Assembly: GCA_023229825.1 (NCBI GenBank)
Contig: JALNYN010000005.1
Location: forward strand, 1,933 to 65,932
Origin: Minisyncoccota bacterium
GTDB lineage: Bacteria > Patescibacteriota > Minisyncoccia > Phycocordibacterales > CAIJYI01
Direction of reading: 5' to 3'
Length of the DNA: 64,000 nucleotides
Under the pieces are notes generated by a model. The model made no database searches. It was not told where the DNA came from and saw only the letters and a list, made by a program, of their open reading frames with translations. Made by a program: the position numbers and the translations under genes. Shown here one piece after another: positions 7,502-64,000 of this stretch (its first letter is position 1; every line of letters starts with the position of its first letter).

Positions 7502-7507
7502 AAAGTA

Positions 7508-7546
7508 AACGACCACCGGACCTGAGTCCGGTGGTCGTTTACATTT
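7508..7546 (+). terminator. hairpin terminator downstream of glyQS
   Basis: aaacgaccaccgg/ccggtggtcgttt 13-bp stem followed by T-rich tract. Confidence 0.55.
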
Positions 7547-7615
7547 TACTTATAGCTCGCCTATCGCACCCGATCGATCTATACCTCTCACACTTTTGTT
7601 TCAAAAAACACACAA

Positions 7616-8102
7616 GGCAAATTCTAGCATATGCCGCCTAGCCGGATTAATTTGGTTGATAATCGCTCGGACCATAGACCATTTTTCATCCAGTTTTATC
7701 CAAAACAAAAACGAGTATCGCCGGACGGGGTTTGTAACCCCGTCCGAAACGTTTGGCGATCTTGATCGAGTCTGTGCTTCAAATTAACCATAAACGAAGC
7801 CTCCAAATGTTTCGGACAGGGGTATCCCGCTCGCAAGCGGGACCCCGCACGCTGCGGTGGCAACCCCAGTCCGGCGACGGGGCTGTGATCGGATCATATT
7901 TTCATTCGTATACAGATATTCATATATTATTTTTGCGATCAAAATTGCTGATTTCAACTTCGCAACATGACAATTCTCATGTATTTTTTTCATACACGCG
8001 AATTGTGTCAAAAAACGTCAAAAAAGGCTTGCGCTATCGAACTAAAACTACGATAGCACCAACCAAGTTAACGCGGCTATCACGCATATGCTAGAATTTG
8101 CC
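7616..8102. mobile_element. MITE-like non-coding element bounded by 19-bp perfect terminal inverted repeats (ggcaaattctagcatatgc)
   Basis: Left end ggcaaattctagcatatgc and right end gcatatgctagaatttgcc are exact reverse complements; interior has no credible ORF and carries a family-A structured repeat. Confidence 0.55.
7719..7882. repeat. family-A palindromic repeat, copy 1 (inside the TIR element)
   Basis: ccggacggggtttgtaaccccgtccgaaacgtttgg ... ccaaatgtttcggacagggg ... caaccccagtccggcgacgggg; nested hairpins; related copies at 19.2 kb and 31.8 kb. Confidence 0.55.
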
Positions 8103-8154
8103 TACAAAGTGAGAAATAGAAAATTATTTTACAATTAAAAATTTTTTATTTTTT

Positions 8155-8194
8155 TTACAAAAAATCGCCGCGGTCCGAAGACTGCGGCGATAAC
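8155..8194. terminator. bidirectional hairpin terminator (3' of PhoH2 gene)
   Basis: atcgccgcggtc-cgaag-actgcggcgat stem-loop flanked by T/A tracts on both sides. Confidence 0.55.
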
Positions 8195-8231
8195 TTTTTT
8201 CGATAGTGAATATCAATTTTTATGATATTGA

Positions 8232-9635
8232 TCACCAATTATTGGCGACGAATTCAGCAAGTTCGCTTCTTTCGCAGCCGACGAGCGTCACATGAGCGCA
8301 TCTCTGGCCGATCTTCGAGGATTCTACCGCATGGGTAAGTCCGCATGATTCGGCGGAAAGATACTGAGATGCAATTTGCCGGACATTTCCGAGAAAGACG
8401 AATTTCGTTCCCGGACCGGCGCGCGTGCCCAAGTCGAGCGCTTGTTTTGGCGTTAAATTTTCCGCTTCATCAACGACAACGAACTTTCTGTGGAATGTTC
8501 TGCCCTGCATCGGTCCAATGGAACGCATTTTGACGTAGCGCTTCATTAGATCCTGTGCCGTTTGTTTATGTGCAGCATCGATGCCTGATGTCAAAAAATC
8601 AAGGTTGTCGGTAAATGCCATAAGCCATGGAGCCATTTTCTGCTCTTCGTTGCCCGGAAAGGTCCCAGGGTCGATACCGATCGGCATGATCTCTTTGGTA
8701 ATAGTAATCTCGTTGTAGAGACGCCAGTCAATTACCTGCTCCAGTGCGGCAGCAAGAGTGAGGAGTGTTTTTCCCGACCCGGCTTTTCCGGCCCCGGAAA
8801 CGAAATGAATTTCAGGGTTCATGAGGGCATTCATAAAGAAGTTCTGCTCTTTATTGAGTGCATGAAGTCCCCAAACATTCTTATCTTTCGTATAATCATA
8901 AATAGTGCTGATGGTTGCGTAGCCTTCATAGTCGAGTTTGCGAACCATGAATTCTTGAATTCCTTCCTCTGTGATCAGGGTAAGAAATTGATTCGGAAAC
9001 CATGCGTTGGAAAGAGTGGTTTTTATATCCCAATACGTGAGTCCGTTCTCTTCTTTTTCGCTGAGCTTTTTGGTTTTTTTCCAAAAATTTTCCGGCAGAT
9101 CCGCCATTCCGCTGTAGAGAAAGTTGATATCGTCGATCGCTTTGGCTCTGGCGTACTCTTCCACTTTGACACCGCACATGAGCGCGGTGATCCGCGCGAT
9201 GCTATCTTGCGTTATGAAAATAACGTCAACGCTTTCCCCGAGTTTTTTTTGTAGTTCGCTCGCAAAATTTATGATGGGTGCATCGGGATTGAGCGGCATG
9301 AGCAGCAAGCTGGCATGACTTGATTCAAAAAATACGCGTCCGGTTTTTGAAGAAGGACCTTTTTTTCCGTAATAGGAAATAGCTTTGGATATCGGAAGTC
9401 CTTTTTCCAGATCGTCGGGACTGGCGCCGCGAAGAAGTTCGGAAAAATATTTGGTGGTGTGCCGAGCATTTTTTGCAAGTTCCGGTTTTCGGATATTGGT
9501 CTTATGATTATCCAGTTCGCGCATAACGGCGATAGGGACATAAATGTCATGCTCGTCGAAATTAAAAAGCGCGGCGGGATCATTCCCATAAATGCAGGTA
9601 TCCAGTACGAATACCGTTTCTTTTGTTCGCTTCAC
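8232..9635 (-). CDS. PhoH2-type protein (N-terminal PIN domain fused to PhoH-like ATPase)
   Basis: PIN-like VFVLDTCIY...D residues N-terminally; Walker A GAGKAGSGKT, Walker B VVVDEAEN; probable GTG start preceded by GGAGG (ORF track extends to 9689). Confidence 0.8.
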   Translation of the reverse strand: MKRTKETVFVLDTCIYGNDPAALFNFDEHDIYVPIAVMRELDNHKTNIRKPELAKNARHTTKYFSELLRGASPDDLEKGLPISKAISYYGKKGPSSKTGRVFFESSHASLLLMPLNPDAPIINFASELQKKLGESVDVIFITQDSIARITALMCGVKVEEYARAKAIDDINFLYSGMADLPENFWKKTKKLSEKEENGLTYWDIKTTLSNAWFPNQFLTLITEEGIQEFMVRKLDYEGYATISTIYDYTKDKNVWGLHALNKEQNFFMNALMNPEIHFVSGAGKAGSGKTLLTLAAALEQVIDWRLYNEITITKEIMPIGIDPGTFPGNEEQKMAPWLMAFTDNLDFLTSGIDAAHKQTAQDLMKRYVKMRSIGPMQGRTFHRKFVVVDEAENLTPKQALDLGTRAGPGTKFVFLGNVRQIASQYLSAESCGLTHAVESSKIGQRCAHVTLVGCERSELAEFVANNW

Positions 9636-33726: not shown

Positions 33727-36700
33727 ATGTATCAAAAATTCCAAGCTAAGCCTATTCACCACAAGGTCTTTTTTCTCGTGATTGCGGCTACCGTTCTTTT
33801 AAGCTCTGTTTTTGCCGGAATTTTGTATGCACAAAAAACGCTCGCCTCCTTAAATCCCGCTCCGTCGAATTTTATTCCAAACGATCCCTTCCAAATAAAA
33901 GGAGAAACCTCCGGCATCGACAAACATTTTGCCATCACCGATAGTGAATACCTGAACATCACCCTTGATAGTACCGAAAACATCGACCTCAAACTCGTTT
34001 CGCGTCCGAAAGTGATTACCATGATGTTCGAGGCGACCACAACAGCCCAAACAACTCAAATCACTATCTCCAATTTGGCAAAAGACACCACGTACTACAA
34101 ATACGAAGACGATTATCACAATCTCACACAATTCACTACCGACTCGAACGGAAGCTACACCTTCTCCCAAGATATTTCCACCCGCCACTTTGTATTCATC
34201 CAAACCAGAAAAAGCACCAAATTCATCGCTGACAACGCCACAGGAGGAGATTGTACCACGATCGGAACATGGGAAAGCACAACCAAAACCTGTACCCTAA
34301 CGCAAGACCTGACGGAAACCATACAGATCGACAGCGACGGCATCACACTCGACGGGAACGGACATAGCATATTGATCACTCCTGAGTATTCATCTGGCGG
34401 GGTGTATCTCTATGACAAAACGGGGGTTACCGTAAAGAACGTTACCATAAACGGATCACATAGCGGGGTTAGTATTAGCGGGGGAAGCAACAACCGCGTC
34501 GAAAATAGTACTTTTGTGGGTAACACCGGCGGTATTGGTATCAGATACGGCAACAACAATATCATTTCGAACAATACCCTCATTGGCACCGGTATTACTG
34601 TTACTTTTAGCAAAGACAATATTATTGAGTACAATACCGCTAATGATAATGATTATAACGGAATTTCTACTACGCTTTCTTCCGGAACCATTATCAGAAA
34701 CAATACTCTAAATAACAATAGGGTCAGCGGAATATATATTTATGATTCGCAGTTCAATGATCAGATCATTGATAATACTGCCCAAGAAAATGGATACCAA
34801 GATATCGTGCCATTCGGAGCAGAATCACACATACTTAAGTGCTATGATACGATAAGAGGAAATATCGGTTCGGGAGGCTATCCGATCGGATATTTCAGCA
34901 CTTCAACCACTTTAACTTCCGGCACATTCTCAGAACTCATCCTCTGCAACGCTGATCACTCCACTATACGCAACGTAAGAGTGCAAGGCTCTGCAGATAA
35001 GAAAAACGGTATTTTTTTGATAGCTCTCACGAATGATTCAAAATTCGAAAACATCAGCGTTACCAACTCGAACGGATTGCATATTTTGTTTTCCGACCGG
35101 AACGAGGTCGCCGGAGGAATGATGGATTCGAATCGGTACGGTATTACTCTGACGAATGCACATGATAACAGGATCCATGAAAACACGATCTCAAACAGCG
35201 AGACGAGCGCTCTTCGCTTTTTTGTGAAACAATCTTCCGACAATACCATTTACAACAATAATTTTATTAACAACATTTCTCTTTCTTTGGGGGATGGAAC
35301 TTCCAATATTTTTGATCTCCCAAAACCAATTGGGGGAAATTACTGGGACAGTTATCATACTACTGCACAAGGTTGCAACGATACAGATAACGATGGTTTC
35401 TGTGATGCGCCGTATGTTTTTGGAAATGGCGTGCAGGATAACATTCCGTGGACAACACAGGACGGATGGAAAAATGTTTCCGAAAAAACTTTGCAATACG
35501 GTTCCGTTTGGGAGGACGATCTCATTCAAGACCGAAGGGGAGGAGCGAACAAAACCAATTTCTTATTCAAAGTCGTGTATACCGACACGACCGCTTCAAC
35601 GCCGCACATCAGGCTTGTATTCTCCGGTCCGCAGGGAGAGATCAAACTCGGCATGGCTCCGGATACTTCCACCACAACCCCTCTCGAATATCACGACGGC
35701 AATCTCGCCAACGGCGAAGCATTTTCCCGAACCTTAACCTTCCCGAAAGGAACGTATCATTACCATTTCGAAACGGAAGACGGAACGGTAAAGCTGGAAA
35801 ACTCGGAGTATATATTTATGACCGGGTACAGCAATGTGGCGTTTATTCCCGGGTTGGAAGCTTCACGGCTCTTCAGACCCATTGTGGGAGGAGGCGCGCA
35901 GTTATGGCTTCCTGGCGCCAGTGCGCACGCAACAAAACTTTACCTCTCAAGCACAACAGGTGAAAGTTTGGATCCGTCTATTTATGTTTCAGGTGTGGTA
36001 AAAACGGCATATGGGGTAAGTATATATCAGAGTTTTCTTGATAAAATAGAGGAAATGAAAACCTCCGGCGACATAGAGCGCTTTGAAACTTTCCCTTATG
36101 ATTGGCGCAAGTATCAGCCGAACGCCGCCACTCAATTAGTGTCAACGGGACCGAACGGAGAATTTTACTCAATGATCGATCGGATCAAAGAAATGGCCGA
36201 TTCTTCACCAACGGGGAAGGTTGCTATAATCACTCATTCAAACGGCGGGCTTGTGGCAAAAGAATTGGCGGATGCGTTAAAACAACAAGGCAAAGCCAAT
36301 GATATTGAAAAGATTATCATGGTTGCCGCTCCGGAACTTGGAACTCCAAAAGCCATACTCGAAATGCTCCATGGAGCTGAACCATTCCTATTAGGCATAC
36401 CAAACAAAGAGACGACCCGCGAACTCGCCGAAAACATGAAAAGCGCATACTCGCTCTTACCGTCCCGTGAATATTTCAACCGACTTGGTACGCCTCTCCG
36501 CCCGCTTGTTGAATTCAGTACGACAACACAGGCAACTTTATCTTTCAGAAACATTTATGGAAATGATATATCGGATTACGATAATTTGCGCAAATTCTTG
36601 CGCGGTGAAAATGGAATAAGAAAAGAACCAGATCCGAGCGTAGTGAATGAGCCGAACGTACTTAAAGAGAATTTTCTTTCAGATGCGGAAGAACTTCACT

Positions 36701-37920
36701 TGAGACAGGATAATTGGACACCGCCGATCGGGGTGGAGGTCGTTCAAATAATCGGCTGGGGATTGGATACTCCGCATGGCGTGCTGTACACAAAAGCGCG
36801 CAAGCAAAAGACGGTATGCAATGCCGATCTTTCAGTTTGTACTAAAACAGACGTCATTGATCCGCAGCCGCTTAAGACTACTATAGAGGGTGATGGTACG
36901 GTGCAGTATGTTTCTGCTGAGGCGATGGGAGGGGAGAAATACTGGGTGGATATGACCCAACATAATGCATGGTGGCAGTATAATATAAACCGCGACCACA
37001 AAAATATTCTTGAAATCGGTTCACTTCAAACACTACTCGCTACTCTAATAAAGAACCAATCAACAAGTACTTTTCCTGAATATATAACAAATGTAAAACC
37101 GATTCCGCCAACAGTCGACAAACGCCTCCGCATCAGTGCACACTCTCCCGTTTCGCTCCATCTCTACGATTCATTCGGAAAACATACGGGAATTATCCCG
37201 AACCCTGATCTGCAATCTGATTTTGATTTTGTCGAGGAACAAATTCTCAACAGCTACTATTGGCGAATTGGAGAAGGACAGTATACCGGAGTAGGAGCTG
37301 AAGCGACCACGACTATCGTATTGAAAGGAAAAGAAACTGGAACATTCACTCTTGAAATTCAAGAAGTTGTCGGCGGAGAAAACGCTGAAAAAACATTTTT
37401 CCAAAATATCCCCACCACGGCAAGTACCACCGCGACCGTGCAGGTTGGAGAAAATGTGATATCACTGCTCGCTGTTGACCTCGATGGCAACGGAACGATA
37501 GATGCTGAATTTTCGGCAAATGACAATGGAATGATAAGCGATCCCCTCGCATATCTTTCACTTATGAAGAAAACCGTTTCTTCTTTCTCCCTCAAAAAAC
37601 AAACCGAAAAACAGATTTTAACAGACCTTTCTCTGATCGAAAAAACTCTGGAGAACTTTATCAAACTGGACGACAAAACGAAGAAAATTTATGAAAAGCT
37701 CGATTCTAAAATTCGAAACGAAAAATTGAGAGAAAAGTGGAAAGAGTGGAGGGACAAGCATCTTATTCAAAGGAATACGCTTGAAGATAAAATATTGTTC
37801 AATCTGGTAGAGAATGCGGAGAAAAATGTTATTCGACTGAGAAAACAGAAAGAAATATCCATAGACCAAGCGGATATATTATTTACTATGCTTGAGGAGT
37901 TAAAAAGTTTAATTAAATGA
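33727..37920 (+). CDS. giant secreted/anchored protein: right-handed beta-helix (NosD/pectate-lyase-like) + alpha/beta-hydrolase (lipase/PGAP1-like) + Ca-binding-like DxDGNGxID module + coiled-coil tail
   Basis: Signal/anchor VFFLVIAATVLLSS; long series of NxTxxGN beta-helix repeats, GGNYWDSYHT...CNDTDNDGFCD; IITHSNGGLVA nucleophile-elbow-like motif; VDLDGNGTIDAEF; Lys/Glu-rich C-terminus. Confidence 0.7.
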   Translation: MYQKFQAKPIHHKVFFLVIAATVLLSSVFAGILYAQKTLASLNPAPSNFIPNDPFQIKGETSGIDKHFAITDSEYLNITLDSTENIDLKLVSRPKVITMMFEATTTAQTTQITISNLAKDTTYYKYEDDYHNLTQFTTDSNGSYTFSQDISTRHFVFIQTRKSTKFIADNATGGDCTTIGTWESTTKTCTLTQDLTETIQIDSDGITLDGNGHSILITPEYSSGGVYLYDKTGVTVKNVTINGSHSGVSISGGSNNRVENSTFVGNTGGIGIRYGNNNIISNNTLIGTGITVTFSKDNIIEYNTANDNDYNGISTTLSSGTIIRNNTLNNNRVSGIYIYDSQFNDQIIDNTAQENGYQDIVPFGAESHILKCYDTIRGNIGSGGYPIGYFSTSTTLTSGTFSELILCNADHSTIRNVRVQGSADKKNGIFLIALTNDSKFENISVTNSNGLHILFSDRNEVAGGMMDSNRYGITLTNAHDNRIHENTISNSETSALRFFVKQSSDNTIYNNNFINNISLSLGDGTSNIFDLPKPIGGNYWDSYHTTAQGCNDTDNDGFCDAPYVFGNGVQDNIPWTTQDGWKNVSEKTLQYGSVWEDDLIQDRRGGANKTNFLFKVVYTDTTASTPHIRLVFSGPQGEIKLGMAPDTSTTTPLEYHDGNLANGEAFSRTLTFPKGTYHYHFETEDGTVKLENSEYIFMTGYSNVAFIPGLEASRLFRPIVGGGAQLWLPGASAHATKLYLSSTTGESLDPSIYVSGVVKTAYGVSIYQSFLDKIEEMKTSGDIERFETFPYDWRKYQPNAATQLVSTGPNGEFYSMIDRIKEMADSSPTGKVAIITHSNGGLVAKELADALKQQGKANDIEKIIMVAAPELGTPKAILEMLHGAEPFLLGIPNKETTRELAENMKSAYSLLPSREYFNRLGTPLRPLVEFSTTTQATLSFRNIYGNDISDYDNLRKFLRGENGIRKEPDPSVVNEPNVLKENFLSDAEELHLRQDNWTPPIGVEVVQIIGWGLDTPHGVLYTKARKQKTVCNADLSVCTKTDVIDPQPLKTTIEGDGTVQYVSAEAMGGEKYWVDMTQHNAWWQYNINRDHKNILEIGSLQTLLATLIKNQSTSTFPEYITNVKPIPPTVDKRLRISAHSPVSLHLYDSFGKHTGIIPNPDLQSDFDFVEEQILNSYYWRIGEGQYTGVGAEATTTIVLKGKETGTFTLEIQEVVGGENAEKTFFQNIPTTASTTATVQVGENVISLLAVDLDGNGTIDAEFSANDNGMISDPLAYLSLMKKTVSSFSLKKQTEKQILTDLSLIEKTLENFIKLDDKTKKIYEKLDSKIRNEKLREKWKEWRDKHLIQRNTLEDKILFNLVENAEKNVIRLRKQKEISIDQADILFTMLEELKSLIK

Positions 37921-38384
37921 ACATGAAACAAAATAATAAACTATATAAATACATTACTTTCGTCATATCTTTATTTTTCGTAGTCATTTTATGTGGGTTG
38001 CTGTTTTATTCTTATACCAAGTCCTCCTGTTCTTATTATTTGAAGGGGACATATCAAATAGATTCAAATTGTTATGATATTCGTGAGTATTATAATCACT
38101 TTAACCAAATTGTAGTTGCATTATTAATGAGTTTTTCTTCCCTATTTCTGATTTCAATTTTCCTCCTCTTCGTCCGCCGCGAAGCATTCATCGCATGGTC
38201 AAAATTCGCAGCCGTGGCGTTTCCCATCATGCTGGGCACCCTGTTGTATACTTTCACTCACGAAAGCGACGGTGCGGCATGGATGAGCGGTCCGTCCAAT
38301 GCTCAAATAGCGATGACGATTTTACCGTTTCTGTTTACTGTCATTTCGTTAGCGATTATAGCCGTCAAACAAACGGAAAAATAA
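37917..38384 (+). CDS. small 4-TM membrane protein, paralog 1 of a triplicated family
   Basis: Shares WxKFAxxxxPI...AIIAVK C-terminal pattern with 39741..40166 and 40377..40820. Confidence 0.5.
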   Translation: MNMKQNNKLYKYITFVISLFFVVILCGLLFYSYTKSSCSYYLKGTYQIDSNCYDIREYYNHFNQIVVALLMSFSSLFLISIFLLFVRREAFIAWSKFAAVAFPIMLGTLLYTFTHESDGAAWMSGPSNAQIAMTILPFLFTVISLAIIAVKQTEK

Positions 38385-38392
38385 AGAAATTA

Positions 38393-38546
38393 CTTAACCA
38401 ATGCAACCGACGTCAACATTACAAAAAATATCCCACCGAAAATTTCAGACAAACGGCACCCGGTTTTTTCCGCGCGACACTTTCATATGCAAAAAGAAAC
38501 GTTACAACACGCGTTTATCAAAACAATGGTGCCTGTCCCCATTTTC
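38393..38546. repeat. ~160-bp direct repeat unit H, copy 1 (ends in family-C REP-like hairpin)
   Basis: ttaaccaatgcaaccgac...ttccgcgcgacactttcatatgcaaaaagaaacgttacaacacgcgtttatcaaaacaatggtgcctgtccccatttt; near-identical at 40160-40333, degenerate at 40814-40979. Confidence 0.6.
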
Positions 38547-39674
38547 CACAACTGGATCCCGCCGAAAAGCGTGCGCGTGGTGCAGATCGCCGGATGGGGA
38601 ATACCTGATACCATTCGCGGACTCGAATACAAAGGGAATTTTCACGAACGATGTACCAGCGCGGGGATGAACAGTTTTTGTCACGACGAAGGAACGTTTG
38701 ATTATGCTCCTCTCTTTACGTTCGACGGCGATGGAACAGTGGTTTTTCCGAGTCAGATCGGAATGGCAACGGCGACGGAGATGTATTTTGTGGATTTAAA
38801 TGGGTATAATAATTCGCTCGGTAACTCAACAATAAATTTTCGAAAGGATAGAACGCATGCTTCGGTACTAGAAGTGGGTGATCTGAGAGATTTATTGAAA
38901 AGCATAATTTCAGAAGAAATAAATCCAGCGAATGGTTTGAATTACATTAAAACCAGCATTACTCAGTTAAACACGGGAAGCCTTAAAAAACTCATCCGCC
39001 TTTCCCTTCGTTCCCCCGTAAAAATCGACGTCTTTGACCAGCAAGGAAGCCATATCGGAATTTCCTCAAGCTCAACGCCAAGTTATACACTCTACGATAC
39101 TCAAATGCCGAACTCATATTATTTAGAAATGGGAGAGGGAAAGTATCTCGGTTTTTCGCTTGATTCGACGAAGACGATAAAACTTCAAGGTATAGGAACG
39201 GGAACTTTCACTTTATCATTCGATCAATATCAAGGAGATACCAAGGAAGCGTCTCAAACTTTTACTGATATTCCGGTAAGTACAACGACCAAAGCGACGC
39301 TTTTGATGAGTACTATAAATGATGCTAAGGAACTTTCTCTTGATAATGATGGAAATGGAACAATTGACACGATTGTCTTCACTGACGAAAACAAAGAGAC
39401 GATAACCTTTCAAACTCTGAAAAATGAAATTCTAAAACTTGATTCAAAAGTACGACCTTCTTTGGTCAATCAAGTTTCAACTGCGGAGAAACAATTTGCC
39501 AAAAAGAATTATACCACAACAAAAGCGCTGTTTATTGTTCTTAAAAAAGAAATCAACCTCCTTTCGCAAAAAAAGATAGGGAATAAATGGCAGATTGAGA
39601 AAATTCAGGCATTAAAAATCTTGGCAGTAATTGACGTACTTATCGCTCAAATGGATGAGTTTGTTCATCGCTGA
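38487..39674 (+). CDS. paralog of the C-terminal ~400 aa of the giant protein (lacks signal peptide, beta-helix and hydrolase parts)
   Basis: HNWIPPKSVRVVQIAGWG / LSLRSPVKIDVFDQQGSH / GTGTFTLSFDQ / LDNDGNGTIDTIVF align with residues ~1000-1397 of 33727..37920. Confidence 0.5.
   Translation: MQKETLQHAFIKTMVPVPIFHNWIPPKSVRVVQIAGWGIPDTIRGLEYKGNFHERCTSAGMNSFCHDEGTFDYAPLFTFDGDGTVVFPSQIGMATATEMYFVDLNGYNNSLGNSTINFRKDRTHASVLEVGDLRDLLKSIISEEINPANGLNYIKTSITQLNTGSLKKLIRLSLRSPVKIDVFDQQGSHIGISSSSTPSYTLYDTQMPNSYYLEMGEGKYLGFSLDSTKTIKLQGIGTGTFTLSFDQYQGDTKEASQTFTDIPVSTTTKATLLMSTINDAKELSLDNDGNGTIDTIVFTDENKETITFQTLKNEILKLDSKVRPSLVNQVSTAEKQFAKKNYTTTKALFIVLKKEINLLSQKKIGNKWQIEKIQALKILAVIDVLIAQMDEFVHR
38525..38545 (+). 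repeat. family-C REP-like hairpin (aatggtgcctgtccccatt)
   Basis: AATGG...CCATT stem with tgcctg loop; coincides with codons MVPVPIF of downstream ORF and with the start of homology to the giant protein. Confidence 0.5.
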
Positions 39675-39740
39675 GAAAATGAGCCAAAGAGATGGAAAAA
39701 ATAAAGGAGAAGATGAAAAAATCAATAACTAACTATTTTT

Positions 39741-40166
39741 ATGCAATACAAAAAACAAGTTTTAGGATTATTTATAACAACTACGACAATTTTTGCGCTC
39801 ATAGTTGCTTTAGGTGAATTATTTGACTCCCAATGCAACTCGGCAGTCGGTTTTTTTGATGATCTATGTCATAATTCGAGCAATATCCAATTATTCACAC
39901 AACCTATTGCGTTGCTCTCTCTCTCTCTTATTATTATCCTTCCCCCCCTCTACTTCTTCCGCGGAGAAATCTATCTCGCATGGCGCAAATTCACTCTCTG
40001 GTATCTTCCAATTGTTGCCATTCTCCTCATTATTGCTCGCCCCTCTGGCGGCGGTATGAGCTTTGGTTTTGACCGCGAATCTCTCTCTTTTCATTTTTCC
40101 GCATATTTCGTTATCGTTTCGCTGGTTATCATTGCAGTAAAATCATGGAAATTAAGAGGGAAGTAA
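39741..40166 (+). CDS. small 4-TM membrane protein, paralog 2
   Basis: WRKFTLWYLPIVAILLIIARP...VIIAVKSWKLRGK. Confidence 0.5.
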   Translation: MQYKKQVLGLFITTTTIFALIVALGELFDSQCNSAVGFFDDLCHNSSNIQLFTQPIALLSLSLIIILPPLYFFRGEIYLAWRKFTLWYLPIVAILLIIARPSGGGMSFGFDRESLSFHFSAYFVIVSLVIIAVKSWKLRGK

Positions 40167-40333
40167 AACGTGAGAAAATTTTAACCAATGCAACCGACAG
40201 TAACATTACAAAAAACATCCAACAGAAAATTTCAGACAAACGGCGTCCGATTTTTTCCGCGCGACACTTTTATATGCAAAAAGAAACGTTACAACACGCG
40301 TTTATCAAAACAATGGTGCCTGTCCCCATTTTC
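40160..40333. repeat. direct repeat unit H, copy 2
   Basis: Starts within the last codons of paralog 2 and runs through a second copy of the MQKETLQHAFIKTMVPVPIF start and REP-C hairpin. Confidence 0.6.
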
Positions 40334-40372
40334 GCTTTGTTTGAAAGATTAAAAGAGATAATTATGAAATAA
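40274..40372 (+). pseudogene. truncated remnant of a 38487-type gene (first 20 codons identical, then stop)
   Basis: MQKETLQHAFIKTMVPVPIF identical to N-terminus of 38487..39674, followed by 12 unrelated codons and a stop. Confidence 0.45.
40312..40330 (+). repeat. family-C REP-like hairpin
   Basis: aatggtgcctgtccccatt. Confidence 0.5.
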
Positions 40373-40376
40373 ACTT

Positions 40377-40820
40377 ATGAATTATAGAAAAAAAATATTA
40401 TTATTTTATTTTACTTTATGTTTTTTCCTGTTAATAAGTATTATTCCATTTGCACCTCATTGGTTTGGATTTTGTGATAGTTTTGTAGACTACGAATGCA
40501 AAGATAAATTCAACAAATATAAGTTGTTTAGTGCGATTATTTCATTTGCATCTTCAATTATTATATTCGGTGCACTTTTAGTTCGTCTTCGAATTAAATC
40601 AAAAGAAGCGTTTCTGGTGTGGCAAAAATTTGCAATTATTTGGATTCCGATTTCTATACTCCTCATTGCAAGAGCTCCCGCTCAACGCGACTGTTTTTTC
40701 GGTGGACCTTTTTGCTCCGGGTTTGACCGAGAAGGAATGATTTGGTTTACGGCAGGCATCTTTTTTATTGTGTCCATTGCCATTATCGCAGTAAAAACAT
40801 GGAAATTGAAAGGGAAGTAA
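40377..40820 (+). CDS. small 4-TM membrane protein, paralog 3
   Basis: WQKFAIIWIPISILLIARAP...IIAVKTWKLKGK. Confidence 0.5.
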   Translation: MNYRKKILLFYFTLCFFLLISIIPFAPHWFGFCDSFVDYECKDKFNKYKLFSAIISFASSIIIFGALLVRLRIKSKEAFLVWQKFAIIWIPISILLIARAPAQRDCFFGGPFCSGFDREGMIWFTAGIFFIVSIAIIAVKTWKLKGK

Positions 40821-40979
40821 ACCGTGAGAAAATTTTAACCAATGGAACCACCAACCGGATTACAAAAAATATCCCACCGAAAATTTCAGATAAACAGCTG
40901 CCAAGTTTTTCCGCGCAGCCCCTTCACCATAAGCAAAAAAACACCTCAACACATATTTTGAAAAGAATGGGTGCCTGGA
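40814..40979. repeat. direct repeat unit H, copy 3 (degenerate; ends in degenerate family-C motif agaatgggtgcctgga)
   Basis: gggaagtaaaccgtgagaaaattttaaccaatggaacc... aligns with copies 1 and 2. Confidence 0.5.
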
Positions 40980-41060
40980 TTTATTCAACCTTGAACTGCA
41001 ACAGTCGTCGTTGATGGTCGATAGCGCGCCGAACTTAACGAACACAGAAGAAAAGTTCGA

Positions 41061-58397: not shown

Positions 58398-59552
58398 ATG
58401 AAATATATTGACGAATTTCGCGACAAGGAAGTTGCGAAGGGGGTGATCGCCGAGATCAAAAGAACGGTCGAGGAGATCAAACAAAACCCTGAAATAAAAT
58501 TGCCGATTCGCATAATGGAAATTTGCGGAGGGCAAACCCATTCGATCTTACAGTACGGTATCCATTCGGCGCTTCCCGAGGAGGTGGAATTTGTCCACGG
58601 TCCGGGATGTCCCGTTTGCGTTACTCCCATTGAAACCATCAACCTTGCTCTGGAACTCGCGAAACAGCCGAACGTGATCTTCACGTCCTTCGGCGACATG
58701 CTGCGCGTTCCCGGCTCGGATGAAAATATGTTTGAAGCAAAAGCGAAAGGAGCCGACATTCGGTGGGTGCGGTATTCTCCAACTGAAGCGGTCGAGATCG
58801 CGAAACAAAATCCCGACAAAGAAGTCATATTTTTTGCCATCGGATTTGAAACCACAACGGCCCCGATCACCGCAGCGCTCCATAGAGCAGAAACGGACGG
58901 AGTGAAAAACTTCTCGATCCTTCCCGCCATGGTTCGCGTTCCTCCCGCGCTCGAAGTAATTTTGAGCGATCCGGAATGCGTTGTTGACGGCATTCTCGCC
59001 GCCGGCCACGTGTGTACGGTTATGGGCACGGAAGAATACGAACCGCTCGTCCAAAAATACGGCGTTCCGATCGTGGTTACCGGTTTTCAGCCGGTAGACA
59101 TTTTGAACGGCACGCTTATGGTCTTGAAACAGTTGAGAGACGGTCGAAGTGAAATTGAAAATGCTTACGGATGGGTGGCTCGCGCTTCGGGCAATACCGT
59201 GGCAAAAACACTCATTGATAAGTATTTCAAGATAATCGATCGAAAATGGCGCGGTATCGGAACAATACCAAATAGCGGTTTCGGACTTCGCGATGAATAT
59301 CTTCATTACGATGCCGAACTGAAATGGAAAAATATAGATGCCCGAAAAGAACCCGAACCCAATGCATATTGCGGTCTCGTTCTGATGGGGAAAATTAAAC
59401 CAACAGAGTGTCCTTTTTTCAGAAAGGAATGTTCGCAAGAGCATCCTATCGGGGCGCTTATGGTTTCCTCGGAGGGCGCATGCGCGGCATACTTTTTGTA
59501 TCAGCAGGACATTAGCCCTTCGACAAGCTCAGGGCAAGGAGAAACTAAATGA
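58398..59552 (+). CDS. hypD: hydrogenase maturation factor HypD
   Basis: GPGCPVC, CGG...C, C-terminal CxxC-rich Fe-S motifs. Confidence 0.9.
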   Translation: MKYIDEFRDKEVAKGVIAEIKRTVEEIKQNPEIKLPIRIMEICGGQTHSILQYGIHSALPEEVEFVHGPGCPVCVTPIETINLALELAKQPNVIFTSFGDMLRVPGSDENMFEAKAKGADIRWVRYSPTEAVEIAKQNPDKEVIFFAIGFETTTAPITAALHRAETDGVKNFSILPAMVRVPPALEVILSDPECVVDGILAAGHVCTVMGTEEYEPLVQKYGVPIVVTGFQPVDILNGTLMVLKQLRDGRSEIENAYGWVARASGNTVAKTLIDKYFKIIDRKWRGIGTIPNSGFGLRDEYLHYDAELKWKNIDARKEPEPNAYCGLVLMGKIKPTECPFFRKECSQEHPIGALMVSSEGACAAYFLYQQDISPSTSSGQGETK

Positions 59553-60592
59553 CTTATAGTTTAGAATGCCCTGTGACGGGGTACAAAGAGACGGATGTCG
59601 TCACCATGGCCCACGGATCGGGCGGAGAGAGCATGCAAAAGCTCATCAGTGAAATGTTCGCAAAGGCGTTTCCCGATCTGCAAGCGGAAGATGATGCGGC
59701 AACTTTTGACGTATCGGGACCGGGGCAGTTCGCGACTAGTATCGATTCCTTCGTGGTTGACCCTATTTTCTTCAAGGGCGGAAATATAGCTTCGCTTTCC
59801 GTTCATGGAACGGTCAATGACTTGGCAATGAAGGGGGCAATGCCGCTTTATCTTAACGTCGCGTTCATTCTTGAGGAAGGACTCCCGTTAAGGCGGTTAA
59901 AATTGCTTGTTTTATTACTCGCAAGGGCAGCAAAAAAAGCTGGCATAAAGATCGTTACGGGCGATACGAAGGTCGTACCGAAAGGAAAAGGCGACGGCAT
60001 ATATATAATTACCTCCGGCATCGGCGTAGTCTTCTGCGAGAAAAGTTTGACTCCCGGACCGAAAAAAGTTTCGGTCGGAGACAAAATTATCGTTTCAGGA
60101 GACATCGGCCGACATGGCATGTCGATCATGTCTGCAAGAGAAGGATTTGATCCGCTTCGTTCGGATTCCGCTCCATTGAATGAAATGGTCAAGAGTTTGT
60201 ACGATCGGGATATCAATCCGAAATGTATGCGCGATGCAACACGAGGCGGAGTTGCCGCCGTGCTAAACGAGATAGCGAGAGTGAAAAAAGTTCACATCCG
60301 CATCGATGAGGAGAAAGTTCCCGTCGATGAGGAAATAAAAGGACTTGCAGAAATTCTCGGTTACGATCTGCTGCACGTGGCCAACGAAGGAAGATTTGTT
60401 CTTTTTGTAAAACCGGAAGATGCCGAAAAAACGGTAAAAATTCTCCAAACTTTTAAAGGTGGAGAACAAGCCGCCATCATCGGCGAAGTAGTGAAGGAAC
60501 ACAAAACCGGTTCGGTAACCGCAGAAACCCTTCTCGGCACCGAAAAACCCATACTAATGCCCGCTGGAGAGATCCTCCCGCGCATTTGTTAG
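59549..60592 (+). CDS. hypE: hydrogenase maturation factor HypE
   Basis: AIR-synthase-like fold, C-terminal PRIC motif; 4-bp overlap with hypD. Confidence 0.9.
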   Translation: MTYSLECPVTGYKETDVVTMAHGSGGESMQKLISEMFAKAFPDLQAEDDAATFDVSGPGQFATSIDSFVVDPIFFKGGNIASLSVHGTVNDLAMKGAMPLYLNVAFILEEGLPLRRLKLLVLLLARAAKKAGIKIVTGDTKVVPKGKGDGIYIITSGIGVVFCEKSLTPGPKKVSVGDKIIVSGDIGRHGMSIMSAREGFDPLRSDSAPLNEMVKSLYDRDINPKCMRDATRGGVAAVLNEIARVKKVHIRIDEEKVPVDEEIKGLAEILGYDLLHVANEGRFVLFVKPEDAEKTVKILQTFKGGEQAAIIGEVVKEHKTGSVTAETLLGTEKPILMPAGEILPRIC

Positions 60593-60656: not shown

Positions 60657-60700
60657 TTTCAAGGATTTGTGCTATGATAGCCAGTGTAAATCGAGATATT

Positions 60701-60770
60701 GGGGTGTAGTGTAATGGTAACACGCCTGCCTTTGAAGCAGGAGACTCTTGGTTCGAGCCCAAGCGCCCCA
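60701..60770 (+). tRNA. tRNA-Gln (anticodon TTG)
   Basis: Acceptor GGGGTGT/GCGCCCC (two G-U pairs), anticodon stem CCTGC/GCAGG with loop CTTTGAA, T-arm CTTGG-TTCGAGC-CCAAG; CCA not encoded. Confidence 0.7.
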
Positions 60771-60847
60771 GCACGCAAAAAATTACCTCGCAAAGGAGTA
60801 TCTTTTGCAGGTGATTTTTGTGTAAATTATTAGCATACGGATTTTAA

Positions 60848-60869
60848 AAAGAATGAGTGCCTGACTACC
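60848..60869 (+). repeat. family-C REP-like hairpin (degenerate)
   Basis: aaagaatgagtgcctgactacc between tRNA-Gln and ATPase gene. Confidence 0.45.
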
Positions 60870-60903
60870 GTTCGTAAGAGAATTATAACTGTCTCGAATT
60901 TAT

Positions 60904-62625
60904 ATGATTAAGAAGATTACCTTAGAAAATTTTCGATGTTTTCAGAAACATACATTATGCTTCCGGGACTTAACGGTTATTGTTGGTAAAAACAATGCAG
61001 GAAAATCCACTATTGTTGAAGCGTTGCGTTTAATTTCTTTAGTAACAAATAGGTACAGAAAACTTCCATATAAAATGCCTCCCGATTGGACTGATTTACC
61101 TAAAAAGTGTTTAGGAGTGAGTCCTTCTATAAAAGGACTGGATATTGGTTTAAATGGGTTATTTTTTCAAAACAACGATGGACCAGCAAAAATAACTGTT
61201 TTTTTTGATAATAACGCAAAAATCGATTTAATGATTGGAGAAAAAGCTGAGTTGTTCGCGTTAATATTTGACAGTCAGGGTAAGATTATTTTAAATAAAT
61301 CACAGGCGTTAATAAATGAGATGTCAGAAATAAACATTCTTCCTCAAATTGGTCCATTAAAAGACAAGGAGGATTTGCTTACTGAAGAATATGTGAAATA
61401 TAATATTTTTTCAAATCTCGCGTCCTTACATTTTCGAAACCAACTGATTCATCTCGGACAGTACTTTAATAAATTTAAAGAACTTTCAGAAAGTAGTTGG
61501 GAAGGTTTAAAAATAATTAGGTTTGAAAAAGGAAGTCAGTTAAATGATGAACCACCTTTTTTGCTCGTAGAAGATAGCAACTTTATTGGAGAGATTGCAA
61601 CAATGGGGCACGGCTTACAAATGTGGCTACAAACGATGTGGTTTCTCGCGAGATGTGATAAAAATTCAATCGTAATATTAGATGAGCCAGATGTTTATCT
61701 TCATGCAGATATGCAAAGAAATCTTATTAACTTCTTTAGGTGTAAATTTAAACAGGCGATAATAGCAACACATTCGATTGAAATCATTTCGGATGTTGAA
61801 CCGCTTAATATTTTGGTGGTAAAAAGAGAAAATAACGAGTCTGTGTTTCTAGATGGTGTTCCCGGGGTACAACAAATTATTGAGAGTTTGGGGAGCGTGC
61901 ATAATTTAGAATTAATCCGCTATTGGTCGGCAAAAAAATTCATATTTTTAGAAGGAAAAAAAGATGATCTTAAAATACTAGAAATCCTTCAAAAATTGTT
62001 CACCCTCAGTCCCCTGAATCTTTCTTCGATACCAGTAGGGTACACAGATGGGTGGTCTGGGTGGGAAAGAGTAATTGGACTGAACATAGGTCTTAAGAAT
62101 ACTGGAGTAGAAACATATTGTGTATTTGACTCTGACTATCATTTACCCGACGAAATCGAAAACAGATTGTTGAGTGCAGGGAAAAATAACATAAAAATTC
62201 ATATTTGGGATAAAAAAGAAATAGAGAATTATCTCATAATTCCCGCCGCCGTACTAAGGTATATTAAAAAACAGGCACATATAGGAAACCCAACACTACA
62301 ACTTATCAACAGTAAGGTATTAGGAATAGCCGAAGAGATAAAAAATGATATTGTGGATAATATTTCTGATGAAATAAAGAAAAGCGATCGCGGATTAAGC
62401 GTATCTACATGTAATAAAAAAGCAAGAGAAATGGTAAATACAAAATGGCAGCATCCTGATGATATTTTAACTATTATTCCAGGAAAACAAGTATTATCTT
62501 CTCTTAGCGATTGGTCTAAGCAGGAATTCAATGTATCTTTCAGTAAATTTCAAATTGCTAGTGAGCTTATTGAGTCTGAAATTAATAACGAGATAATTCG
62601 TGTTTTGAAATTTCTTCAAACTTGA
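60904..62625 (+). CDS. OLD-family-like protein: N-terminal ABC-type ATPase fused to C-terminal Toprim-like nuclease domain
   Basis: ITLENFRCF + Walker A GKNNAGKST, Q-loop, signature-like GHGLQ, Walker B ILDEPDVYLH, H-loop ATHS; C-terminal FIFLEGKKDD (Glu) and CVFDSDYH (DxD) spaced as in Toprim. Confidence 0.65.
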   Translation: MIKKITLENFRCFQKHTLCFRDLTVIVGKNNAGKSTIVEALRLISLVTNRYRKLPYKMPPDWTDLPKKCLGVSPSIKGLDIGLNGLFFQNNDGPAKITVFFDNNAKIDLMIGEKAELFALIFDSQGKIILNKSQALINEMSEINILPQIGPLKDKEDLLTEEYVKYNIFSNLASLHFRNQLIHLGQYFNKFKELSESSWEGLKIIRFEKGSQLNDEPPFLLVEDSNFIGEIATMGHGLQMWLQTMWFLARCDKNSIVILDEPDVYLHADMQRNLINFFRCKFKQAIIATHSIEIISDVEPLNILVVKRENNESVFLDGVPGVQQIIESLGSVHNLELIRYWSAKKFIFLEGKKDDLKILEILQKLFTLSPLNLSSIPVGYTDGWSGWERVIGLNIGLKNTGVETYCVFDSDYHLPDEIENRLLSAGKNNIKIHIWDKKEIENYLIIPAAVLRYIKKQAHIGNPTLQLINSKVLGIAEEIKNDIVDNISDEIKKSDRGLSVSTCNKKAREMVNTKWQHPDDILTIIPGKQVLSSLSDWSKQEFNVSFSKFQIASELIESEINNEIIRVLKFLQT

Positions 62626-62637
62626 GGAAATTTTAGT

Positions 62638-62661
62638 CAGAATGGGTGCCTGACCCCGATT
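62638..62661 (+). repeat. family-C REP-like hairpin
   Basis: cagaatgggtgcctgaccccgatt. Confidence 0.5.
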
Positions 62662-62710
62662 CTACTTATTCAAAATTCATGTACTAATGATTTAATCGGA
62701 TTGAAAAAAA

Positions 62711-63217
62711 ATGGATTGGGAAACCTTTATTATTGCTATACTTGGATCTGGTGCTGTTACCGCGCTTGTTAATGTATGGATGAATCACCGAACTCAAATT
62801 CGCGCAATAAAAGAGTCGGGGCTATATTCAAAACGAGCCGAAGTATTAGATGAAATAATGAAAAGAATGGAGGAACTCCATCGAATTATGGGGGAACTCG
62901 TTTCTTTTTTTCAAGATGACGGGTCGGCTGATGCTGAAAAAGCCCGACGTAAAAAAACAGCCGAGGCGTTTAATTGTTTTTTGGAGTATCTCAAGAGAAA
63001 TAGGCACTATTTACCACGGAAATTATCCGAGGAAATACAACACCTCTGCGATGAATATAAAGAGTTATTTATGAGTTTTTCTTTTGAAGCAAGGCCAGAA
63101 GAGGGGAGGTCAGACCTTAAAAAATGGAAATCGCTTATTGATAGGTACGATATGGATTTTACAGATCAACAGGAATGTATAGCCGACGAGTTTAGAAAAA
63201 TAATCGGTGTTAAATAA
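62711..63217 (+). CDS. hypothetical protein with N-terminal TM helix and helical cytoplasmic domain (partner of the ATPase-nuclease gene)
   Basis: FIIAILGSGAVTALVNVW hydrophobic helix, then charged helical region; no recognisable motif. Confidence 0.4.
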   Translation: MDWETFIIAILGSGAVTALVNVWMNHRTQIRAIKESGLYSKRAEVLDEIMKRMEELHRIMGELVSFFQDDGSADAEKARRKKTAEAFNCFLEYLKRNRHYLPRKLSEEIQHLCDEYKELFMSFSFEARPEEGRSDLKKWKSLIDRYDMDFTDQQECIADEFRKIIGVK

Positions 63218-63228
63218 TAGGTAATGGT

Positions 63229-63247
63229 AATGGGGTCAGGCACTATT
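63229..63247 (-). repeat. family-C REP-like hairpin, inverted orientation, immediately upstream of RAYT
   Basis: aatggggtcaggcactatt = reverse complement of aatagtgcctgaccccatt. Confidence 0.55.
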
Positions 63248-63261
63248 GTTTTTAAAAAAGT

Positions 63262-63957
63262 ATGATACAATATTCTCCTATGCCAAGAAATGAAAGAGTT
63301 GATGTCGGGGGTGAAGTCTATCACGTCATAAACAGAGGAAATGGCAGGCAGACTATTTTCCAAAATGAAGAAGACTATCTTCTTTTTGAATCACTGCTTG
63401 AACACGCAAAGGAATTTATTGTGGATATGAGAATCATCGCTTATACGATTATGCCGAATCATTGGCATCTTGTTTTGTATCCAAAAAAGGACGGTGATCT
63501 TTCTCTCTTTATGCACTGGCTTACGACAAGCCACACCCGAAAACATCATGTCATGAAAGAAAATATCGGTGGCGGGCATCTCTATCAAGGAAGATACAAA
63601 TCATTTCTTGTGGATACGGACAGTTATTTTCTCTCTGTTTTTAAATACGTAGAAAGAAATCCGATGAGGGCAAAGTTGACGGAAAATTGTGAAGATTGGC
63701 GATGGGGAAGTTCGTGGAGAAGATCGAACGGTTCGGAAAAAGAGAAAAAATTGCTTTCCTCGCCGCTCGTTGATTTTCCGGAAAAATACAGCGTATGGAT
63801 AAACAAACCGGAAAAAGAAGATGATGTTGTAAAGATCAGAAATTCGATAAATAAAGGAGTACCGTATGGTCGCGATATTTGGAGTATGGATATGGTTGAA
63901 AAATATGAATTGTCTTCATCGCTGAATAAGCCGGGGAGACCGAAGAAAAAACATTAG
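63262..63957 (+). CDS. REP-associated tyrosine transposase (RAYT; IS200/IS605-like Y1 HuH transposase family)
   Basis: HuH motif IMPNHWHLVL and catalytic Tyr context YQGRYKSFLVDTDSYFLSVFKYVERNPMRA; flanked by inverted REP-C hairpins. Confidence 0.8.
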   Translation: MIQYSPMPRNERVDVGGEVYHVINRGNGRQTIFQNEEDYLLFESLLEHAKEFIVDMRIIAYTIMPNHWHLVLYPKKDGDLSLFMHWLTTSHTRKHHVMKENIGGGHLYQGRYKSFLVDTDSYFLSVFKYVERNPMRAKLTENCEDWRWGSSWRRSNGSEKEKKLLSSPLVDFPEKYSVWINKPEKEDDVVKIRNSINKGVPYGRDIWSMDMVEKYELSSSLNKPGRPKKKH

Positions 63958-63972
63958 AACATGAAAATTACA

Positions 63973-63995
63973 AAAGAATGGTGCCTGACCCCATT
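63973..63995 (+). repeat. family-C REP-like hairpin, direct orientation, immediately downstream of RAYT
   Basis: aaagaatggtgcctgaccccatt. Confidence 0.55.
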
Positions 63996-64000
63996 AACCA

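Follow-up and report, generated by a model that had tools for sequence, protein, structure and literature searches.

RAYT-like genes which have long terminal inverted repeats (TIRs) on both flanks instead of GTAG-type repetitive extragenic palindromes (REPs) were designated TIRYTs, and the corresponding units TIRtrons, by Di Nocera, De Gregorio and Rocco in 2013 (PMC3733652). Many TIRtron repeats share the motif GGGGWSAS and form moderately abundant families whose members occur as monomers, dimers and clusters (PMC3733652). According to Quentin et al. (2018), most TIRYTs correspond to subclass 2.1 of the TnpA-Y1 transposases, which is equivalent to the Group 1 RAYTs of Bertels (PMC6006769). 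The proteins of this subclass have a median length of 238 amino acids, an HUH motif of the sequence NHVH or NH[YF]H and a tyrosine motif of the sequence YIELNP or Y[IV]HLNP, as well as an SS that is conserved in the proximal part of the tail and a helix-turn-helix (HTH)-like C-terminus (PMC6006769). Group 1 is the most widely distributed RAYT group and the one with the most insertion sequence (IS)-like behaviour, its flanking 16-mers amounting to about 12 per replicon (PMC5581495). Here we report on a 64,000-nucleotide stretch of a Candidatus Paceibacterota genome (assembly GCA_023229825.1, contig JALNYN010000005.1; "the window" in the following) which close to its end harbours a TIRtron-like element next to a tRNA-Gln gene. 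Our literature searches retrieved no described Group-1/TIRYT-type system in Patescibacteria.

Altogether 74 kb of the genome were covered, namely the window and a further 10 kb taken from the ENA contig ERZ27249449:k141_1286909 (78,344 bp, referred to as L001), which contains the window (window position = L001 position + 53261). Coordinates of all features are compiled in Table 1. The first-pass annotation of the window had named three genes downstream of the tRNA, encoding an ATPase-Toprim protein, a small transmembrane protein and a RAYT transposase, and all three calls hold. The transposase, which is present in one copy in the 74 kb, is RAYT-like. Its true start is probably Met7 (ATG at 63280), which would give a protein of 225 amino acids, since homologues align from the seventh residue. 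Pfam Y1_Tnp (PF01797) matches residues 20-133 with 52.9 bits at a cut-off of 23, while the match to NCBIfam REP_Tyr_transpos (NF047646) reaches 58 bits and stays below the cut-off of 80. The family alignment reveals the HUH motif NHWH, the Y---NP motif YVERNP and the sequence WGSS, N60-H61-x-H63 and Y123 being nearly invariant. A search of solved structures with the transposase sequence alone returned nothing relevant; only the family profile identified E. coli TnpA-REP (PDB code 4er8) as the best match (1.4e-7), followed by the ISDra2 transposase (9.5e-5). The homologues number 5015, and the best matches listed comprise 222-243 amino acids, the named ones among them deriving from Paceibacterota/Parcubacteria-group taxa.

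The gene is bracketed by an inverted-repeat pair of 25 nt whose arms are 92% complementary and lie 719 nt apart. Such an inverted bracket also surrounds every homologous transposase examined in Patescibacteria, i.e. in six contexts of which five belong to Paceibacterota and one to Saccharibacteria. Next to a transposase of 82% identity (L210) the arms comprise 36 nt with 92% complementarity, and next to one of 63% identity (L211) they comprise 49 nt with the variant core AATCGTGACTGTCCCGGATT, in which the change in the stem is compensated (AATCG...CGGATT). Arms of 59 nt and 51 nt are found in L213 and L216, and further brackets are present in a Taylorbacteria contig (L067/L023) and in the Saccharibacteria contig (L098). 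Judged from sequence, the repeat is the cognate repeat of the adjacent tyrosine transposase. In L211 (8024-9923) the homologous transposase directly follows an AbiEii-family gene and its 206-aa partner, a toxin-antitoxin or abortive-infection pair.

The core of the repeat reads AATGGTGCCTG(A/T)CCCCATT; its reverse complement AATGGGGTCAGGCACCATT contains GGGGTCAG, and the copies at 38-40 kb contain GGGGACAG. Since the reverse complement reads GGGGTCAG or GGGGACAG, the core fits the GGGGWSAS motif of TIRtrons (PMC3733652). The element agrees with TIRtrons in having one RAYT-like Y1 HUH gene between TIRs with this motif. It also agrees in that its TIRs belong to a dispersed repeat family (six copies with at most four edits plus half-copies in the 74 kb), a feature of some TIRtrons only, and in the occurrence of monomers, dimers and clusters with a wide and patchy taxonomic spread. 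With Group 1 and subclass 2.1 the protein has in common the Y---NP motif, an HUH motif of the type NH-aromatic-H and the SS in the tail. Its NHWH and YVERNP are class 2 signatures and close variants, but differ from the consensus of subclass 2.1, for which NH[VYF]H as the HUH motif and YIELNP or Y[IV]HLNP as the tyrosine motif have been published. A DnaA_C-like HTH tail was not detected and the host is a Patescibacteria (Candidate Phyla Radiation, CPR) genome, which sets the element apart from both TIRtrons and subclass 2.1. Furthermore, the conserved core comprises 19 nt and is near-identical across phyla, which is much longer than the 8-nt motif described for TIRtrons. As the HTH tail is undetected, we file the element as a TIRtron whose transposase is subclass-2.1-like rather than a proven member of this subclass, an assignment made by motifs and repeat type only.

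Two other labels were considered. E. coli-type REPtrons (TnpA-REP of groups 2 and 3 with REP, BIME or REPIN repeats) resemble the present element by their domesticated single-copy Y1 transposase, by cognate repeats inverted around the gene, by solo copies in intergenic DNA and by 4er8 as the best solved relative. In contrast to them, the repeat described here lacks a GT[AG]G foot and has a weak 5-bp stem with a conserved 9-nt loop; its copy number is low (6-9 in 74 kb, clustered), and the NF047646 score is below the cut-off. A canonical REP label was ruled out because no GTAG adjoins any copy and the stem is weak. IS200/IS605 elements (TnpA-IS200) share the Y1 HUH fold (Pfam Y1_Tnp), short palindromes at the ends and, presumably, the single-stranded DNA (ssDNA) chemistry. 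Yet the present protein carries Y---NP instead of Y---Q and comprises 225 instead of ~150 amino acids, tnpB is missing, a single copy was detected in the 74 kb, inverted repeats take the place of two dissimilar hairpins at the left and right ends, and of the PDB matches of the profile the one to this class is weaker (see above). The Y---NP motif, the missing tnpB and the inverted rather than asymmetric ends rule out this label as well.

Copies of the repeat, whose 19-mer is AATGGTGCCTGACCCCATT, were mapped by an edit-distance scan of the window and the extension allowing up to four edits, which yielded exactly six matches. One copy is located in each gap around the three genes. For an exact or one-mismatch 19-mer 0.01 occurrences are expected per window, and for the half-copies beyond the window end about 0.12 are expected by chance. 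With these half-copies, five consecutive gaps contain a full or partial copy. Four of the six matches fall within 3.2 kb of the 74 kb (binomial P ~5e-5, calculated post hoc). All copies except the left bracket share one orientation, which is that of the strand with positive cumulative GC skew. The first-pass annotation had described the same REP-like hairpin in every intergenic gap. All four copies it placed there are indeed present but of unequal quality, two being good, one containing two 1-nt insertions and the one at 60.85 kb being marginal, while "REP-like" is a misnomer in view of the absent GTAG foot and the term "hairpin" is weakly justified in view of a weak stem of about -2 kcal/mol. 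The annotation had also named an ordinary intergenic frequency of the motif as part of the outcome that would speak against its view; this was not found, as the motif is confined to two low-GC patches in the 74 kb.

Table 1. Features of the locus. Positions refer to the window; those beyond 64000 are window-equivalent positions in the extended contig.
Feature	Position	Strand	Remarks
RAYT/TIRYT-type Y1 HUH tyrosine transposase gene	63262..63957	+	Pfam Y1_Tnp 5e-14
Left terminal inverted repeat of the TIRtron	63228..63252; core 63229-63247	-	core with 1 mismatch; 11 nt past the stop codon of the upstream gene
Right terminal inverted repeat	63972..63996; core 63977-63995	+	core is exact consensus
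Solo copy 16 nt past the ATPase stop codon	62641..62661	+	AATGG[G]TGCCTGACCCC[G]ATT; two 1-nt insertions
Decayed solo copy of the transposase right-end repeat	60826..60872; core 60852-60872	+	core AATGAGTGCCTGACTACCGTT; 4 edits (2 substitutions + 2 indels)
Half-copies TGACCCCATT	64005-64014, 64603-64612		L001 10744-10753, 11342-11351
Further core copy (AATGGTGCCTGTCCCCATT)	38525..38543	+	0 edits, T at the variable position; ends a ~165-bp repeat
Second ~165-bp repeat with core	40312..40330	+	0 edits, T at the variable position
tRNA-Gln, anticodon TTG	60700..60772	+	ARAGORN; Rfam tRNA 69.6 bits
Terminator-like hairpin past the tRNA (GCAAAGGAGTATCTTTTGC)	60790..60808	+	L001 7529-7547; consensus match only
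OLD-family ABC-ATPase + Toprim nuclease gene, 573 aa, GC 0.33	60904..62625	+	Pfam, PADLOC, PDB profile
Small-protein gene, 168 aa	62711..63217	+	N-terminal hydrophobic stretch (from the translation, no prediction tool)

The second of the two patches (37917-40985; GC 0.36-0.42) harbours three paralogous genes of small membrane proteins (155, 141 and 147 amino acids) which share 37-45% identity at the protein and 60-64% at the DNA level. Each of them is followed by a non-coding repeat of ~165 bp which, with 78-91% identity, is far better conserved than the genes and ends in the repeat core; the third copy is truncated and ends near 40985. An open reading frame (ORF) at 38487-39674 begins inside the first of these repeats and, by eye, looks like a paralogue, shortened at the 5' end, of the C-terminal portion of a 1397-aa protein encoded at 33727-37920, the comparison comprising one short motif (...VVQI.GWG...). 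Hence, the repeat copy at 38-39 kb may be situated at a rearrangement junction.

The core is by no means restricted to this genome. A GTDB scan with one genome per species and AATRGTGCCTGWCCCCATT as query found it in at least 116 stretches from many phyla, compared to about 17 estimated by chance. Among the matches listed, dozens of often tandem copies occur in a metagenome-assembled genome (MAG) of Lachnospiraceae, while in Steroidobacteraceae and other Proteobacteria the core often forms inverted doublets; other hosts among these matches are Collinsella and further Coriobacteriia, Thermoanaerobaculia and several Patescibacteria lineages. RAYT homologues, some of them with only 26-36% identity, adjoin the motif in eight of the matched 8-kb loci listed. 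Firmicutes- and Prevotella-type homologues with the same TIR core carry the HTH tail, and so do the longer homologues of L032, L066 and L102. In these three loci (L066 1705-1723 and L032 4168-4186, both Prevotella-type; L102 6593-6611) the core overlaps the 3' end of the transposase gene and encodes Asn-Gly-Ala-stop (AAT GGT GCC TGA). The 19-mer is also present in contigs of a MAG labelled as a Nitrososphaeria archaeon (L048, L083, L027, L079), amid clusters of a related GGGGTCAGAC repeat, which could be due to binning contamination or to real cross-domain spread. IMG/VR viral contigs do not contain the motif, and a full-text literature search for the motif strings returned unrelated primer matches only and no paper with the sequence.

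One to five half-copies of the sequence (C)TG[AT]CCCCATT often come after a full copy, as observed in L001, in L023 and L067 (both Taylorbacteria) and in L026, L034, L071 and L110. According to our reading of the sequences, which is not a mapped cut, the half-copies start at the CT of the loop (GCC|TGA) here as well as in Taylorbacteria, Lachnospiraceae and other loci. This suggests a common break-and-join site. For TnpA-REP proteins of groups 2 and 3, binding to the stem-loops of REPs on ssDNA, cleavage at CT (or CA) dinucleotides and strand transfer are established (PMC8266576), and the half-copy starts at the loop CT would be consistent with a TnpA-REP-like cleavage.

We consider it likely that the segment is organised by a TIRtron, i.e. 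by a single-copy RAYT-like Y1 HUH transposase gene within inverted terminal repeats of ~25-45 nt, that its solo and half copies were seeded locally, and that the ATPase gene, the membrane-protein gene and a 152-aa ORF past the window end are unrelated accessory genes. By analogy to its relatives, the transposase would bind its own repeat on ssDNA and would cut and rejoin it via its HUH/Tyr site. Over time, this would seed solo and half copies nearby and lead to the observed copy in each of five adjoining gaps. The accessory genes would have piled up in a repeat-rich, recombination-permissive spot without having been brought by the repeat.

A different origin of the copies would be selection by the host as RNA elements at 3' ends, where they would stabilise or terminate mRNAs, with their spread not driven by the transposase. 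It is true that the copies of the common orientation are all located shortly past stop codons of co-oriented genes, and the known role of REPs in mRNA stability and termination (PMC3733652) also counts in favour of this idea. In addition, the outer stem covaries across taxa: positions +/-1 and +/-2 outside the AATGG/CCATT stem are Watson-Crick paired in 61-62% of 137 distinct instances, compared to 33-37% in shuffles, although these counts are inflated by kinship among the instances. Since the flank pairing exceeds that of shuffles and involves several pair types, the stem-loop seems to be under some selection, a signal which also counts in favour of the TIRtron account. The core copies of the present locus, however, form a 5-bp stem with folding energies of 0 to -2 kcal/mol and z ~0 for four of the five copies folded, and a T tract is lacking. 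The best-folding copy is that at 62.6 kb (DNA fold -4.8 kcal/mol, z -2.0). An Rfam search (E<=1) revealed no family for the motif. Furthermore, apart from one other low-GC patch, copies are confined to the vicinity of the transposase, and in each lineage checked an inverted pair brackets the transposase. Taken together, we regard RNA elements as an improbable explanation.

The ATPase-Toprim gene bears on the question of whether the repeat carried its neighbours along. Its 573-aa product matches Pfam AAA_15 (5e-26) and AAA_21 (8e-18) and, among the PADLOC profiles, AriA (3e-25), fused AriAB (5e-24, residues 252-500), GajA (1e-20) and Old (4e-19), so that no single PADLOC profile stands out from best E-values of 1e-25 to 1e-19 spread over several systems. 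Profile matches in the PDB comprise PtuA, OLD (6p74), GajA and AriA. In an alignment with 24 homologues Walker A (G28-x-NNAGK34), Walker B (I258-LDEPD263) and the Glu/DxD signature of the Toprim domain (E350, D409-x-D411) are invariant, although the direct Pfam match to OLD-like_TOPRIM is weak (E=0.024). With OLD-family nucleases (P2 Old, GajA of Gabija, AriA/AriB of PARIS) the protein thus has in common an N-terminal ABC ATPase (AAA_15, AAA_21) fused, at the C-terminus, to a Toprim domain whose E and DxD are invariant, along with the single gene, the accessory context and the patchy distribution. In contrast to Gabija, PARIS and retron systems, it is accompanied neither by a GajB-like helicase nor by a separate AriB or a retron partner (reverse transcriptase/non-coding RNA); its immediate neighbours are the tRNA and the family-less 168-aa protein. 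The family consists of single genes, is large and shows 43-59% identity in Bacteroidota, Paenibacillus, WS5 and Ignavibacteriales. No conserved neighbour of the homologues was found in L205-L209, those of L208 and L209 being stand-alone. The gene is best described as an ordinary, predicted stand-alone defence-type gene. The closest homologue (59-60% identity) stems from the same metagenome (L205, ENA ERZ27249449 k141_140232; also L206 and L207), and the L205 block, in which an HTH regulator is accompanied by a TIR-domain protein and by a large serine recombinase, has the appearance of a mobile element for defence.

The adjacent 168-aa protein matches no Pfam, NCBIfam or PADLOC family. Its own family is small (152 cluster representatives at E<=1e-3), with no homologue found beside the ATPase homologues. 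A two-gene system of ATPase and membrane protein was rejected for now, as a membrane-protein homologue is missing from five loci with three distinct ATPase homologues. The 152-aa ORF beyond the window end is likewise family-less, has a putative N-terminal signal peptide (by reading the sequence) and is framed by identical 12-nt CTGACCCCATTA repeats.

This framing, together with the fact that each gene of the block is followed by a copy 11-37 nt past its stop codon (in the same orientation, the left bracket excepted), brings to mind an integron-like cassette array in which the copies would serve as recombination sites and the HUH transposase would have captured the ATPase gene, the membrane-protein gene and the 152-aa ORF one by one. 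The genes are functionally unrelated and differ in GC content (0.33-0.41), and in the Taylorbacteria contig a tRNA-Gln adjoins the TIRtron with no genes in between, which would also suit such an array. If this were true, the locus would represent an integron-like platform driven by an HUH enzyme in streamlined CPR genomes, beside tRNA-Gln, and the half-copies starting at the loop CT would be joints from cleavage and strand transfer. Nevertheless, the repeat motif is absent from the loci of ATPase homologues (five loci, three distinct homologues), from which we conclude that the ATPase gene did not come in with the repeat. Neither a circular nor an excised form was seen, the evidence consists of one array, and tandem duplication could account for the three repeats at 38-41 kb, which come after paralogous genes. 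We therefore judge an array of captured cassettes to be very unlikely.

The segment, inside which the window ends, is AT-rich and accessory and extends over ~3.8 kb from 60773 to ~64613 (extended coordinates), with the tRNA-Gln on one side and a DUF2238 gene on the other. From the 3' end of the tRNA to the last half-copy the block measures 3.84 kb and has a GC content of 0.364, compared to 0.466-0.469 on either side. In the GC profile the drop begins exactly at the 3' end of the tRNA-Gln, and the block stops ~610 bp past the window end. The individual genes exhibit GC contents of 0.483 (hypE, upstream of the tRNA), 0.332 (ATPase), 0.385 (small membrane protein), 0.391 (transposase), 0.410 (152-aa ORF) and 0.465 (DUF2238). 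Past the window end a half-copy, the 152-aa ORF, a terminator-like stem (by eye), the second half-copy and the DUF2238 gene follow each other. Relatives of the genome were sought by HypE, i.e. by a metagenome scan and a homologue search, and their locus contexts were then compared. In all five relatives found (HypE 65-75% identical), tblastx similarity to the contig ends at the end of hypE, and the nearest relatives (HypE 62-75% identical) have only the hyp operon in common with this contig. This complete hydrogenase maturation operon (hypF-hypC-hypD-hypE) occupies window positions 58398-60592 and continues upstream (L001 2414-7331); relatives have a NiFe hydrogenase large subunit close by (L203). 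On account of the composition shift, the stop of synteny at hypE, the patchy ATPase family and the restriction of the motif to low-GC patches, the segment looks accessory in character.

According to the first-pass annotation, the segment is an accessory island which looks like an integration hotspot at the tRNA and is probably cut off by the window end. The truncation is borne out, as extending the contig past 64 kb, which that annotation had proposed, added ~610 bp of low-GC block with one more low-GC gene (the 152-aa ORF) and two half-copies. The accessory nature likewise agrees with the low GC content, the synteny break and the patchy distribution of the ATPase family. An integration at the tRNA, in contrast, is a different matter. 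In a classical tRNA island an integrase would have inserted the 3.8 kb block site-specifically into the 3' end of tRNA-Gln, the repeats being incidental passengers. Such an event would account for the precise onset of the GC drop and for the loss of synteny with five relatives just upstream. It would also be in keeping with the nearest HypE relative (L200, 75% identical), in which a tRNA-Gln(ttg) 5.3 kb downstream of hypE is followed by a 228-aa ORF and a defence-type gene of the DndB family (6825-8985), and with L210 and the Taylorbacteria contig, where the transposase has a tRNA-Gln upstream. On the other hand, no Pfam match to an integrase or recombinase was obtained for any gene called within the 13 kb downstream of the tRNA, and no tyrosine or serine recombinase gene was found from the tRNA up to where the GC content is normal again nor within 10 kb downstream. 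The direct repeat of the tRNA 3' end which the annotation had proposed to look for at the far boundary was not found; a second copy of its last 21 nt (up to 3 mismatches) is absent from 13 kb of L001, and no other bounding direct repeat of at least 14 nt was found around the block, the half-copies excepted. The absence of the motif from viral contigs also argues against an island of this kind. With neither integrase nor tRNA 3'-end repeat, classical tRNA integration is left without positive evidence, and we deem it improbable; the island-at-tRNA view as a whole is partly supported, with integration at the tRNA unproven. Two contigs from two other samples (L002 and L003) are 100% identical over the block, and both begin at the same base inside the tRNA-Gln. 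We did not count this as polymorphism since the simplest explanation is that the de Bruijn graph branches at a tRNA which is conserved.

Returning to the TIRtron as organiser of the segment, several observations weigh against this account. A tRNA-Gln is located upstream of the homologous transposase, on the same strand, in three of seven Patescibacteria contexts. The distance amounts to 2.5 kb here, 0.5 kb with no gene between in the Taylorbacteria contig (tRNA at L067 7238-7311) and 6.6 kb in L210 (anticodon CTG; 3338-3412), whereas no tRNA-Gln lies within 8-10 kb of the transposase in L211, L213 and L216. This linkage is suggestive only, hinting at site-specificity or an old linkage, and is not explained by the model. 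The copy at 60.85 kb is at chance level by its core alone, as about 1.2 such 4-edit matches occur per shuffle of 74 kb; it is nevertheless credible because it shows 84% identity over 25 nt to the copy at 62.6 kb and its 5' flank can be aligned to that of the right-end repeat. Two clusters in 74 kb are the basis for the genome-wide copy number and for the association with low GC. A C-terminal HTH (Bac_DnaA_C, HTH_23 or HTH_28-like) was not detected in the transposase by Pfam, and the weak fold of the local copies makes recognition as a stem-loop uncertain. Finally, we infer the spreading of the repeat by this transposase from relatives of groups 2 and 3 and not from Group 1/TIRYT enzymes.

The element is of a known kind and mostly ordinary; of some interest are its CPR host, the 19-nt core across phyla and the copies in consecutive gaps. 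The idea of a tRNA island adds little. Owing to the run of copies in consecutive gaps, a cassette-type mechanism retains a small probability. The locus places a Group-1/TIRYT-type transposase-and-repeat system in Patescibacteria (CPR). From CPR to Firmicutes, Actinobacteria, Proteobacteria and Acidobacteria the 19-nt core is almost unchanged, although the proteins have diverged to ~30% identity. The core (AAAAGAATGGTGCCTGACCCCATTAACC) thus constitutes a concrete and testable candidate DNA substrate for this RAYT group, and for annotation purposes the motif offers an inexpensive way to spot accessory patches rich in repeats in small genomes.

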